Shown: positions 24,345 to 56,462, counted from the stretch's first letter. The stretch is 64,000 nucleotides of DNA from Burkholderiales bacterium (GCA_016223165.1 JACRPO010000021.1:56286-120285); one strand, 5' to 3'. The notes: generated by a model not told the origin, from the letters alone. Made by a program: numbers and translations.

Positions 24345-25253
24345 TCAGTCGGCCGCGCCGCCGGGCGCGGGCGCGAGCGCGGGCCGCTGCCGCACGGCAG
24401 GATCCAACCACCACAGCGCCATCGCCACCGCCACGACGACCACGGCGCCGAGGGTGGACGACCACGACCACGCATGCTGCCCGGCCAGCCACGCCGCGCC
24501 GATGCTGGGCAGCAGCTGCAGGCCGGTGGCCGGGGCGGTGAGCGAGACCGGTGCGGCGGCGGCCATGCGCTCCAGCGCATAGAGCGCCCCGAAGCCGAGC
24601 ACGCCGACGCTGACCATTCCGGCCAGGCCCATTGCGTCGGGCCAGACCCAGCGGCCCGGCAGCAGCGGCAGCATCAGCACCACCACGCCGGCGGCCGTGT
24701 AGAAGAGGTTGGCACGCAGCCGCTCGTGTCGCAGCGCGCGCGTGGCGACGACGAACAGCACGAAGGAAAGCGTCATGCCGAGCGCCAGCGCCACCATGGT
24801 GGCCGTGGGCAGGCGCTCGTGGTGGAAGAACAGGTTCGCGCCCGCGCAGGCCGCGGCGGCCGCGATCCACAACGTCGCCGGGGCCCGTTCACCCCCGAGG
24901 ACGTGGGCACACAGCAGCAGCAGGATGGGCGAGCTCCAGAACACCGCCATCAGCGTGTCGGGAGCCATGTTGCGCTGCATGGCCAGCAACCAGCAGATGG
25001 GCATGGCCACCATCATCGCGGCGCGTGAGACCTGGAGCCAGGGCCGGGCCGTGCGCACGAGCTGCATCGGTTCGCGCCGGCCCCAGAGCAGGCCCATCAG
25101 CACCAGCTGGGCCGCGAAGCGCACCCAGACGACCTGGAGGGCGGAGTAGCGCTCGATGAGCAGCCCGGCCACGAGCTCCTCGCCTGCCCACAAGGTCACG
25201 CACACCAGCTTCCAGAGCAGGCTCTCCCGCCCGGGGCTCAGCGCTGTCTTCAT
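24345..25253 (-). CDS. DMT/EamA-family transporter (302 aa)
   Basis: About 10 hydrophobic segments; EamA-like SALQVVWVRF, FWSSPIL...LGGER; ATG overlaps the PKS6 stop (ATGA at 25250-25253). Confidence 0.82.
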   Translation of the reverse strand: MKTALSPGRESLLWKLVCVTLWAGEELVAGLLIERYSALQVVWVRFAAQLVLMGLLWGRREPMQLVRTARPWLQVSRAAMMVAMPICWLLAMQRNMAPDTLMAVFWSSPILLLLCAHVLGGERAPATLWIAAAAACAGANLFFHHERLPTATMVALALGMTLSFVLFVVATRALRHERLRANLFYTAAGVVVLMLPLLPGRWVWPDAMGLAGMVSVGVLGFGALYALERMAAAAPVSLTAPATGLQLLPSIGAAWLAGQHAWSWSSTLGAVVVVAVAMALWWLDPAVRQRPALAPAPGGAAD

Positions 25254-54600: not shown

Positions 54601-56462
54601 CCGGCGTGCCGTTCGAACAACGAGGCCACTTCCTCGAGTGCGGCGCGGAAGACCGGCTCGGTGTCGAAGAGCTCGGAGGCCATTGCCGGCCACACGCCAC
54701 CCTGGCCGGTGAAGACCCAGACGACCTGCGCGTGCGCATCGTCCGCGGCGCTATCGGGCAGCGCCGCGATGCGCGCTTGCAGCCGCGCGGCAACCGTGCC
54801 CGCCGTGTCGCCCACGACGGCCACCCGCCAGGGGTGGTGGCTGCGCCGTGTGGCCGCACAGTGGGCGGCATCGGCGAGCGCGTCAGGTGGCAGCGCCGCC
54901 AGCGCGTCGCTGTGCTCGCGCAGGGCCTGGGCCAGCGCGGCGGCGCTGCGCGCCGAGACGACGAAGAGCTCTTCCCGTTGCGGTGCCGCAGTCGCTGTGG
55001 AGGCCGCGGGGGCTGCGTGGCCGGACACCACGTCGGCCGCCTCCTCGAGCACCACGTGCGCGTTGGTGCCGCCGAAACCGAACGAACTCACCGCGGCGAC
55101 GCGCGGCAGCGGGCCGCCCGGCCAGGGCGTCAACGTGGTGGGGATCTCGAAGGGCGTGCCCTCGAGGCGCAGGTGCGGGTTGGGCTTCGTGAAGTGCAGG
55201 TTGGCCGGCACCGCGGCGTGGCGCAGGCAGGCCACGGCCTTGAGCAGGCCGGCGATGCCGGCTGCGCCTTCGAGGTGGCCGATGTTGGTCTTCACCGCGC
55301 CGAGCCAGCAGCGGTGCTGCGCATCGCGGCGCGGGCCGATCGCGGCTGCCAGCGCCTCCACCTCGACCGGGTCGCCCAGCGGCGTGCCGGTGCCGTGCGT
55401 CTCGACGAGGCCGACGCGCTCGGGCGCGATGGCGGCCAGCGCGAGCGCGCGCCGCACCACCGCTTCCTGCGCCGGGCCATTGGGGGCGGTGAGGCCGTTG
55501 CTGGCCCCATCCTGGTTCACGGCGGAGCCGGCGATCACGGCGAGCACCGTGTCGCCGTCGCGGCGCGCATCGGCCAGGCGCTTGAGCACCACCAGGGCCG
55601 CGCCTTCGCCGCGCGCGATGCCGTTGGCCGAGGCGTCGAAGCTGGCGCAGCGGCCCTCGGGCGAGAGGATCTGCAGCTTGCTGAAGGCGAGGCTCGCGCT
55701 CGGCAGCAGCATCAGGTTCACGCCGCCGGCGAGCGCGAGGTCGCACTCGCCGCCGCGCAGGCTCTGGCAGGCCAGGTGCACGGCCACCAGCGAAGAGGAG
55801 CAGGCCGTGTCCACGGCCATCGAAGGGCCGCGCAGGTCGAAGGTGTAGGAGATGCGGTTGGCGAGGATGCTGTGCGCCGACCCGGTGGCCGAGTGGCTCT
55901 CGAGGCCGCCGCGCTGCGCCAGCTGCAGCAGCCAGTAGTCGCTGCTGTGGCTGTGCGCGCCCACGAAGACGCCGGTGGAAGTGCCGGCGAGCTGGTCGAC
56001 CGGCTGGCCGCCGGCCTCCAGCGCTTCCCAGGCCAGTTCGAGCAGCAGGCGCTGCTGCGGGTCCATCAGCGCCGCCTCGCGTGGCGAGATGCCGAAGAAG
56101 CCGGCGTCGAACTGCTCGATCCCCTCGATGAAAGCGCCGCGGCGCGAGACCATGCGGTTGGGTGCGAGCGGATCGGCGTCGAGCAATGCCTCGCCGCCCC
56201 AGCGCTCGGCCGGCACGTCGGTGACGGCATCGCGGCCTTCGACCAGCATCTGCCAGAACGCCTCAGGCGTGTCGGCGCCGCCGGGCAGGCGGCAGGCGGC
56301 GGCGACGATGGCGATGCGCTCGGGCCTGTTGCCGACGCTCGCACCGGCACTGGCGCCGGCGCCCGCCGCAGGCGCCGCGGCCGCGCCCTGCGCCAGGCGG
56401 CGCTCGAGCAGCGCACGCTTGGCCGGCGAGAGGTGGGCCAGGCGGTCGGTCGCTTCGGTCAT
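51621..56462 (-). CDS. Type I PKS module 2: KS-AT-KR-ACP (1613 aa)
   Basis: Start ATG 56462 (MTEATDRLAHLSPAKRALLERRL), overlapping the PKS1 stop; KS DTACSSS; AT GHSVG + VEFAFHS; KR TGGYGGLG, no LDD (AAAALAY), LAGYAAAN; ACP GLDSL. Confidence 0.93.
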   Translation of the reverse strand: MTEATDRLAHLSPAKRALLERRLAQGAAAAPAAGAGASAGASVGNRPERIAIVAAACRLPGGADTPEAFWQMLVEGRDAVTDVPAERWGGEALLDADPLAPNRMVSRRGAFIEGIEQFDAGFFGISPREAALMDPQQRLLLELAWEALEAGGQPVDQLAGTSTGVFVGAHSHSSDYWLLQLAQRGGLESHSATGSAHSILANRISYTFDLRGPSMAVDTACSSSLVAVHLACQSLRGGECDLALAGGVNLMLLPSASLAFSKLQILSPEGRCASFDASANGIARGEGAALVVLKRLADARRDGDTVLAVIAGSAVNQDGASNGLTAPNGPAQEAVVRRALALAAIAPERVGLVETHGTGTPLGDPVEVEALAAAIGPRRDAQHRCWLGAVKTNIGHLEGAAGIAGLLKAVACLRHAAVPANLHFTKPNPHLRLEGTPFEIPTTLTPWPGGPLPRVAAVSSFGFGGTNAHVVLEEAADVVSGHAAPAASTATAAPQREELFVVSARSAAALAQALREHSDALAALPPDALADAAHCAATRRSHHPWRVAVVGDTAGTVAARLQARIAALPDSAADDAHAQVVWVFTGQGGVWPAMASELFDTEPVFRAALEEVASLFERHAGWPLLPVLTDAAQGARLAATDVAQPAIFAVQVALAALWRSWGVKPGAVVGHSVGEVAAAYVAGVLTLVEAVRVVLHRSRAMQAAFGRGRMAQVECSEAALLAELPPSGSALSIAAVNGPASTVVAGEPGALAALVARLAQRGIAARELAVEFAFHSAQMDAFVPAIVAALGTLQPRPATLPIVSTVTGQWAGTGDFGAAYWGRNVRETVRFAPAVARLLEAGLNTFLEIGPHPALGAGIAAVAEAAGARAAIAASLRRSQPARAALLAGLGQLYEAGAAIHWAARRDAGRRVVALPAYPWQRRRHWLEAPDAAALAFGVTGRDAPVAGRDEGLACYEMQWPALPLSMSLSMPLSPSLALPQAMSHSVAPGPATRRFEGTAWRVVGEPGGFGERLAQALRDEGAACELFASAAASPPPTPALTGLVHCGALDASADSSAAALSAAVDNGTVGALLGLQHLSLAARGARLWLLTRGAQRIDAGDAAPVPAQALLWGLGRSVALEVPQCWGGLVDLDPAADEAGAVAALLAQLAAHDGEDQVAFRAGARHVARLARREAPPAARLALDGSGAHLVTGGYGGLGPKIVRWLASCGARCIVLLGRGGPPAGDTSFEMLRAEMQAAGVALWLERADVADADAMRALVDRLEGAGQPLRGVVHAAAALAYHALADLSADALRALLHAKVQGTVVLHELTRERPLDLFVMFSSGTTLFGASRLAGYAAANQFLGALAWQRAALGLPATCVEWGAWSEIRLLGRERHDDIHQLGFRTMDDAEAFDMLARLVVAREPQCMVADLDAATAGQAYQVHGPRAFLSLLAPPATRDEAAEPGAEAAGATLRALLAGLAPRARRDKLATLVRTELAAVLGLAGPQEVDPARGFFDLGLDSLMAVQLRRRLGRLTGAALPSTTTFNHPTAAALAEHLLEGLSPPDDATAAAAPNATWPAASTPAPAGATEPPEAVESLSDDEVRRALMAELEGLGEAAPGLPEPLGDAR
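53541..53576 (-). repeat. 12-bp in-frame tandem repeat x3 (LPLSMSLSMPLS) in the PKS2 AT-KR linker
   Basis: cgagagcggcat / cgaaagcgacat / cgagagcggcag. Confidence 0.8.

Follow-up and report, generated by a model that had tools for sequence, protein, structure and literature searches.

A predicted cis-acyltransferase polyketide synthase line from a Burkholderiales bacterium, with a probable alkene at module 6 in place of a proposed spiroketal hydroxyl

Introduction

Gene clusters for spiroketal polyketides frequently, though not obligatorily, encode a dedicated spirocyclase, of the AveC, RevJ, OssO/OlmO or SlnM type. The ketone of such compounds can be made on or after the polyketide synthase (PKS): at C-25 of ossamycin it is proposed to originate from a module lacking a ketoreductase (KR) and lies 1,5 to a PKS-derived hydroxyl, whereas in reveromycin, and probably in spirangien, it is made after the PKS by oxidation, via RevG in the case of reveromycin, with cyclisation by RevJ following (PMC6490886). 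The former arrangement is encountered in a stretch of 64,000 nucleotides from a Burkholderiales bacterium (GCA_016223165.1 JACRPO010000021.1:56286-120285), hereafter “the window”, meaning that whole stretch, in which positions 25250-56462 are filled exactly by five intact, minus-strand, single-module PKS genes, named C to G (PKS2 to PKS6 in an initial annotation of this sequence). That annotation concluded that the five modules pre-programme a [6,6]-spiroketal, through two hydroxyls flanking a retained ketone. The analysis reported here indicates that the genes probably encode modules 2-6 of a nine-module line of PKS and non-ribosomal peptide synthetase (NRPS) modules, of the cis-acyltransferase (cis-AT) type and in the order B-C-D-E-F-G-(EamA)-I-J-K, with a standalone type II thioesterase (TEII) at its head, and it favours an alkene over an alcohol as the outcome of module 6.

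The precedents named in the initial annotation hold only in part. With a ketone that is predicted to form on the line, the locus would be better likened to avermectin and ossamycin than to reveromycin, and spirangien probably falls away as a model together with the latter. In contrast to avermectin (AveC), oligomycin (OlmO) and ossamycin (OssO), the second hydroxyl is not secured here, as an intact dehydratase (DH) stands at module 6; the predicted product is moreover a linear N-acyl amino acid and not a macrolide. A cyclase was likewise not recognised: no gene resembling RevJ, AveC, OssO, OlmO, SlnM or SnoaL, for which an upstream search had been proposed, was found by Pfam or NCBIfam in the open reading frames (ORFs) of the window or in the regions that precede the cluster in three related loci (L001, L003 and L004), a result that covers profile matches only, the methyltransferase at 8297-8920 not having been compared with SlnM.

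In organisation the line resembles that of curacin, sharing with CurF-CurM the arrangement of one module per protein, CurL-like linkers, and C-methyltransferases (cMTs) embedded in the order DH-cMT-KR; the DH of module 6 (DH6) also matches the CurK and CurF DH structures. Unlike curacin, the line in the window lacks an HCS cassette, ST-TE offloading and a loading GNAT, and it is betaproteobacterial, the GC content of the window being approximately 74%. The gephyronic acid PKS is likewise a cis-AT line rich in embedded cMTs, though of myxobacterial origin, so that the host belongs to a different phylum. A looser likeness, drawn in the initial annotation to bistramide and lagriamide, lies in the possible oxygen heterocycle joined through an amide to a γ-amino-β-hydroxy acid unit; these are trans-AT products, unlike the line considered here, in which the presence of an AT in every PKS module agrees with the cis-AT assignment of the initial annotation. 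It is a typical line of the myxobacterial or cyanobacterial cis-AT style, and the unusual part is the Burkholderiales host.

Architecture of the assembly line

Coding regions were called by frame analysis of third-position GC (GC3), and domains by Pfam profile scans of the ORFs in the window. GC3 delineates a single long minus-strand coding run, from approximately 64000 down to 9500, which contains the following genes (KS, ketosynthase; ER, enoylreductase; ACP and PCP, acyl and peptidyl carrier proteins; C and A, condensation and adenylation domains; TE, thioesterase):

63310..63999, minus strand: gene A, thioesterase, cut at the window edge (Pfam)
56459..63310, minus strand: gene B, module 1, KS-AT-DH-ER-KR-ACP (Pfam, motifs)
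51621..56462, minus strand: gene C (PKS2), module 2, KS-AT-KR-ACP (Pfam, motifs)
44962..51624, minus strand: gene D (PKS3), module 3, KS-AT-DH-ER-KR-ACP (Pfam, motifs)
40295..44965, minus strand: gene E (PKS4), module 4, KS-AT-cMT-ACP (Pfam, motifs)
32181..40298, minus strand: gene F (PKS5), module 5, KS-AT-DH-cMT-ER-KR-ACP (Pfam, motifs)
25250..32146 (or 32110), minus strand: gene G (PKS6), module 6, KS-AT-DH-cMT-KR-ACP (Pfam, alignment)
24345..25253, minus strand: gene H, 302-aa EamA/DMT-like polytopic membrane protein (borderline Pfam score, hydrophobicity)
17706..24320, minus strand: gene I, module 7, KS-AT-DH-ER-KR-ACP (Pfam, motifs)
14248..17709, minus strand: gene J, NRPS, a TubC_N docking domain followed by C-A-PCP (Pfam)
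9513..14255, minus strand: gene K, last module, hybrid-type KS-AT-KR-ACP without a TE (Pfam)

Most of the line genes are translationally coupled through ATGA overlaps, all in the same direction, and the domain E-values for C to G (1e-9 to 1e-100) are so low that chance matches are of no concern. Each PKS module of the line (B-G, I and K) has its own KS, AT and ACP, and the CurL-like KS-AT linker (Pfam PF22621) is found in every module, while the NRPS module is inserted in the line together with its docking element. Motif inspection located Cys-His-His in all KS domains and the phosphopantetheinylated Ser in all carrier proteins, with AT GHSxG and ACP DSL/GGHS motifs present along the PKS modules, the NADPH motif in the ERs, and the S-adenosylmethionine (SAM) motif in the cMTs. 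Gene E has no KR, DH or ER, nor any space for one. Gene G starts at either GTG 32146 or TTG 32110, the latter matching a database protein of 2286 aa (P0001); ATG 32184 was considered as a start and rejected, being out of frame.

The coupled, co-directional genes, and a gene order kept in divergent relatives, are consistent with a collinear use of the predicted modules. B, the first PKS protein, opens directly with a Cys-containing KS and carries a full reductive loop, and no loading module, CoA ligase, FAAL or cyclase was found upstream of it, in the window or in the flanks of its relatives. The AT of D (HAFH) is of the malonyl type. Non-canonical motifs are found in the ATs of G (LAAHS, 29786-29800), E (QSFHS, 42602-42616), C (FAFHS, 54135-54149) and B (VASH), from which the extender units of these modules do not appear predictable; the Ala-Ala-His of the G motif is present in at least 92% of 85 homologues, and genes for unusual extenders were not seen in the window.

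The reductive programme and the retained ketone

The Pfam domain maps of C to F bear out the hydroxyl, methylene, ketone, methylene pattern that the initial annotation gave for modules 2-5, with boundaries that coincide exactly. From domain content, module 2 would leave an alcohol, module 3 would reduce fully, module 4 would keep its β-ketone and methylate the α-carbon, module 5 would both reduce fully and introduce an α-methyl, and module 7 would again reduce fully. Each of E, F and G contains a cMT; these domains had gone unmentioned, as had the catalytic His and Asp/Gln of DH6 and a His in the KR of module 5 (KR5), both considered below.

The KRs fall out differently with respect to their stereochemical motifs. 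LxD or LDD is carried by those of B, D (LDD, B-type), F and I, and is missing from those of C, G and K, in which W141 is also absent. The KR of C possesses Lys/Ser/Tyr/Asn and the NADPH motif, and in that of K ~18 extra residues follow the NADPH-binding strand. The carrier domain of K is also distinctive, with a PCP-like GGHS and not the ACP-like GxDS.

Between the β-carbons handled by C, E and G lie three carbons in each case (1,5 and 1,5), as the initial annotation had correctly counted in placing each hydroxyl carbon 1,5 to the ketone carbon. Alcohol, ketone and alcohol at C, E and G would thus amount to a 1,9-dihydroxy-5-ketone, if G stopped at the alcohol. One half of what a spiroketal needs, a retained ketone with an upstream 1,5 hydroxyl, is found in the domain content of the line (KR only in C, full reduction in D, a non-reducing E); the other half depends upon module 6.

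The dehydratase of module 6

The motifs that bear upon modules 5 and 6 are as follows:

29150..29185, minus strand: DH6, 12-residue motif HxxxGxxxxA, catalytic His present, canonical Pro replaced by Ala (motif inspection)
28769..28792, minus strand: DH6, GIDLGPAF, counterpart of GYxYGPxF, with Leu for Tyr (motif inspection)
28604..28624, minus strand: DH6, LLDGALQ, within an 11-residue stretch, catalytic Asp and Gln of DxxxQ present (motif inspection)
26228..26257, minus strand: KR of module 6 (KR6), 10-residue site at which B-type KRs have LDD, no Asp (motif inspection)
26057..26083, minus strand: KR6, GLAHYAAAN, catalytic Tyr and Asn present, W141, P144 and N148 absent (motif inspection)
32976..33002, minus strand: KR5, active-site stretch GQCNHSAAN, His at the catalytic Tyr position (motif alignment)

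Module 6 does combine, as first described, a KR without LDD and a DH without its conserved Pro. The conclusion drawn from this, that DH6 is silent and the second hydroxyl kept, is not supported by an alignment of 85 single-module homologues of gene G (51-93% identity over ~99% of the length), in which the catalytic His and Asp are both 100% conserved and the Gln 98%. Since 80% of these homologues have Ala at the “Pro” position, the missing Pro looks to be a clade trait and not a lesion. Neither His nor Asp, the loss of one or both of which marks an inactive DH, has been lost; counted from GTG 32146, they are His988 and Asp1178. At the GYxYGPxF site, the sibling DHs that must of necessity be active have Phe where DH6 has Leu.

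Divergence tells a similar story. DH6 is 31-35% identical to the four sibling DHs of the line, which are 32-38% identical among themselves. Between the window and L006, L007 and L008, the per-domain protein identities are 53, 45 and 48% for DH6, and 63, 52 and 37% for DH5, a domain whose activity is required by the ER behind it; DH6 thus seems to evolve about as fast as DH5. A DH is retained in every G-type homologue listed, although the cluster family is able to build cMT modules without one, both in gene E and in the KS-AT-cMT-KR-ACP second module of L003 and L004, which argues that DH6 is not kept merely as a scaffold. Where a hydroxyl is wanted, the family appears to use KR modules that have no DH. 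KR6 forms no subgroup with the DH-less KR of module 2 in the identity matrices of KRs and DHs.

The closest solved structures to DH6 are functional DHs, from GphF, CurK and CurF (E ~1e-15), with DH1 of GphF, from the gephyronic acid PKS, the best match (PDB 6MBF, E = 9e-16). Like DH6, GphF DH1 lacks the Pro of HxxxGxxxxP (it has Leu; Pro is present in 6MBH) and keeps His and Asp, although the identity is low, the CurK DH scores equally, and DH6 has Ala rather than Leu at this position and Leu rather than Tyr in YGP. GphF DH1 is reportedly a dual dehydratase/isomerase that keeps the dyad, in which the Leu at the Pro position is said to matter for isomerisation; the isomerase activity is a feature of GphF DH1. 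In the ambruticin domains AmbDH3 and AmbDH4 the His/Asp dyad is likewise intact, and their activity goes beyond dehydration (PMC7327777); AmbDH4 is described as working together with a cMT (PMC7327777, PMC11672594); no specific relationship of DH6 to either was detected. In enoyl-isomerases the Pro is exchanged for a hydrophobic residue, in addition to Asp to Asn and Gln/His to Val/Leu changes (PMC11672594, PMC7327777), of which DH6 shows the Pro to Ala change with Asp and Gln retained, and hence not the full signature. Pyran synthases usually replace the catalytic Asp, by His or Asn (PMC7327777); DH6 keeps it, in LLDGALQ.

Base rates are available from a curated set of 1,762 KRs, mostly actinobacterial, in which modules with both KR and DH (γ-modules) yield an E-alkene in 78% of cases and a Z-alkene in 5%, with the DH silent in 17% (PMC11228615). 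In the same set, 42 KRs are linked to Z-forming DHs, only five of these KRs having the W, and the A-type KRs paired with a silent DH number 11, none of which has it (PMC11228615). From these 42 and 11, a KR that lacks both LDD and W and sits beside a DH would be about three times more likely to neighbour an active, Z-forming DH than a silent one. The combination in module 6, of a DH with intact invariant His, Asp and Gln and atypical Pro to Ala and Tyr to Leu changes beside an LDD-less KR, leans away from a module that stops at the alcohol, and base rates and conservation together make a silent DH6 appear doubtful.

Predicted product

It is accordingly a used DH6 around which the product is modelled, and we consider it probable that module 6 delivers a 2-methyl alkene, by dehydration, in place of an alcohol, giving a methyl-branched δ-hydroxy-ketone chain that contains a trisubstituted alkene and is joined to Gly by an amide before its further extension. 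Given the LDD-less KR, the alkene would probably be Z or otherwise atypical, and in a sub-case of this model it may have moved to the β,γ position, as with GphF DH1 or AmbDH4. After module 7, J would add Gly, and K would add malonate and reduce, producing a γ-amino-β-hydroxy acid. The A domain of J carries the specificity code DILQLGMIWK, which we take, from comparison with canonical Gly codes, to specify Gly, and its ..N(L/M)YGPTETTIW stretch is common to the orthologues; together with the KS-AT-KR module that follows, this agrees with the Gly-derived γ-amino acid unit of the initial annotation. The chain predicted from the domain content is:

R-CH(OH)-(CH2)3-C(=O)-CH(Me)-CH2-CH(Me)-CH=C(Me)-CH2-CH2-CO-NH-CH2-CH(OH)-CH2-COOH

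As K has no TE, release would probably be by the standalone TE. A single δ-hydroxy-ketone of this kind could form a six-membered hemiketal; a [6,6]-spiroketal would be out of its reach, because, with DH6 active, the second ring would have no hydroxyl to close with.

Alternative readings of modules 5 and 6

As DH6 looks functional, the [6,6]-spiroketal becomes a minority possibility and not a pre-programmed outcome, and a spiroketal product of any kind is unlikely, if far from negligible. In the form originally put forward, which we consider rather improbable, a silent DH6 leaves module 6 at the alcohol, and the dihydroxy-ketone closes, spontaneously or with enzymatic help, to a trimethylated 1,7-dioxaspiro[5.5]undecane. 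Such a product would, to our knowledge, be unusual among Gram-negative, non-myxobacterial cis-AT lines, and apparently no dedicated spirocyclase would take part in its formation. The oxygenated carbons have the spacing that a spiroketal requires, and the hydroxyl-(3C)-ketone-(3C)-[module 6] layout, with methylenes from modules 3 and 5, is kept across the family, as would fit a selected cyclisation. This weighs against the alkene model, as do several features of the module itself: three consensus features are missing from DH6 (the HPLL cap, the Pro, replaced by Ala, and the Tyr of YGP, replaced by Leu), and the four other DH-containing modules pair with LDD/LxD-type KRs, which module 6 does not, its KR lacking W as all A-type KRs with silent DHs do (PMC11228615). 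Motif-intact DHs can be silent, as 17% of γ-modules are (PMC11228615), and DH activity cannot be read with certainty from sequence; collinearity, the starter, and the extender choice of the four non-canonical ATs also rest on prediction. Set against silence are a His, Asp and Gln intact here and invariant across the 85 homologues, a Pro to Ala change that is a family trait, the persistence of the DH in all G-type homologues listed while DH-less cMT-KR modules exist in the family, a divergence no greater than that of active sibling DHs, the threefold base rate in favour of an active Z-forming DH, and the failure to find a spirocyclase candidate in the window or in the flanks of relatives.

The same spiroketal would also result from a bifunctional DH6 that dehydrates and then, like AmbDH3, cyclises, with the hydroxyl of a hemiketal (formed, speculatively, between the alcohol of module 2 and the ketone of module 4) adding in oxa-Michael fashion to the 2-methyl-enoyl chain on the ACP of module 6. 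The ring sizes fit, since the enoyl β-carbon and the ketone carbon stand in a 1,5 relationship; in AmbDH3, which is a cis-AT DH and retains His and Asp, dehydration does precede pyran closure (PMC7327777); and a second function would explain the strict conservation of so atypical a DH. A hemiketal nucleophile is nevertheless without precedent in DH-catalysed cyclisation, and the retained Asp is at odds with the usual pyran synthases (PMC7327777), making this a very slim prospect. More generally, the conserved layout might exist for an on-line oxygen heterocycle, and the Pro-less, dyad-intact DH6 clade might be a new cyclising or isomerising type of DH, for which the chances seem poor. A hemiketal that closes the spiroketal by conjugate addition would be one example, and environmental Burkholderiales would, on this reading, make spiroketal or pyran lipo-amino acids of a new class. 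A further reading moves the break in the hydroxyl-ketone pattern from module 6 to module 5, where a dead KR5 would make modules 4 and 5 leave a methylated 1,3-diketone. The His of its GQCNHSAAN stretch does align with the catalytic Tyr of solved KRs (MAS, AmphI and DEBS; GQGAYAAAN in MAS), but it is shared by all three F orthologues (L006, L007 and L008) and by 95 of 120 ER-KR homologues, collected with the C-terminal 939 aa of F as query. The domain is 79% identical to its L006 orthologue, and DH5 and ER5 keep their motifs intact, an upkeep that would be pointless behind a dead KR. The Tyr to His change was hence rejected as an inactivating lesion, being clade-wide, and a dead KR5 is highly improbable; KR5 looks like a functional clade variant that breaks the Tyr rule in fully reducing modules. 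The locus also offers two natural tests of textbook motif rules, namely a DH clade without the canonical Pro, and a KR clade with His for the catalytic Tyr in fully reducing modules.

The cluster family

Orthologues of B were found in five loci (L001-L005). The nearest genome locus, L001, belongs to a Rubrivivax sp. metagenome-assembled genome (MAG), with a B that is 78% identical, and its gene A orthologue (82% identical), which follows a phosphopantetheinyl transferase (PPTase) gene, encodes a standalone type II TE of 264 aa. In both L001 and L003 B stands third in the operon, after the PPTase and the standalone 264-aa TE, and housekeeping genes lie upstream of these; in L004 B directly follows pntAB. 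These operon heads identify gene A as a type II TE and B as the first PKS gene; that gene A might be the C-terminal TE of an upstream megasynthase was considered and rejected on the same grounds, its L001 and L003 orthologues being standalone TEs after a PPTase and housekeeping genes. Gene A (63310-63999) is the only thioesterase of the cluster in the window.

Other relatives preserve the middle of the line. On the contig JANMXI010000045.1 (L004 and L007), which stops after J, the genes are B, a C homologue bearing an additional cMT, D, E, F, G, I and J. In L006 the run E, F, G and EamA is followed by an I fused to a TE, and in L008 by I and J. Between G and I lies gene H, the start of which overlaps the G stop codon and whose product has nine or more hydrophobic segments; the gene is kept at the same spot in L006, L008 and the P0002 contig, and is absent in L007. 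The termini differ: L006 closes on the I-TE fusion and L007 on the NRPS module, and in the window K has neither a TE nor an R domain. By gene content, the core of hydroxyl, methylene, ketone, methylene and a DH-cMT-KR module appears conserved and the end of the line variable, K being an apparent addition in the window.

More than 80 homologues of the module 6 type were found (KS-AT-DH-cMT-KR-ACP, ~2200 aa; 51-68% identity in the MAGs listed), the MAGs being labelled Rubrivivax, Rhizobacter, Hydrogenophaga, Zeimonas, Rhodocyclales, Hyphomicrobiaceae and Acidobacteria, and relatives of B occur in MAGs labelled Rhodocyclaceae and Xanthobacteraceae. This spread suggests a PPTase-TEII-PKS-NRPS cluster family of wide distribution and apparent horizontal mobility. 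No product described for the family or the taxon came up in literature searches, and the window represents an orphan PKS-NRPS family of the form PPTase-TEII-B-C-D-E-F-G-(EamA)-I-J-(K).

Flanking genes and host

Downstream of the line lie two further groups of genes:

6889-9406, minus strand: SMR efflux gene, 207-aa class I methyltransferase (8297-8920; not of the EgtD type) and egtB, directly downstream of K
24-6108, plus strand: sdhC-like, sdhA, sdhB, sdhE, citrate synthase (gltA) and patatin-like phospholipase genes, the downstream flank

The EgtB equivalog match scores 555 bits, versus a cutoff of 360. The EgtB, methyltransferase and SMR genes are not adjacent to the cluster in relatives, and are probably unrelated to the PKS. 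The sdhCDAB-sdhE-gltA flank presumably reflects a betaproteobacterium, and the host is a Rubrivivax-like member of the Burkholderiales. This primary-metabolism flank sets the border of the cluster at ~9.5 kb or, alternatively, ~6.9 kb.

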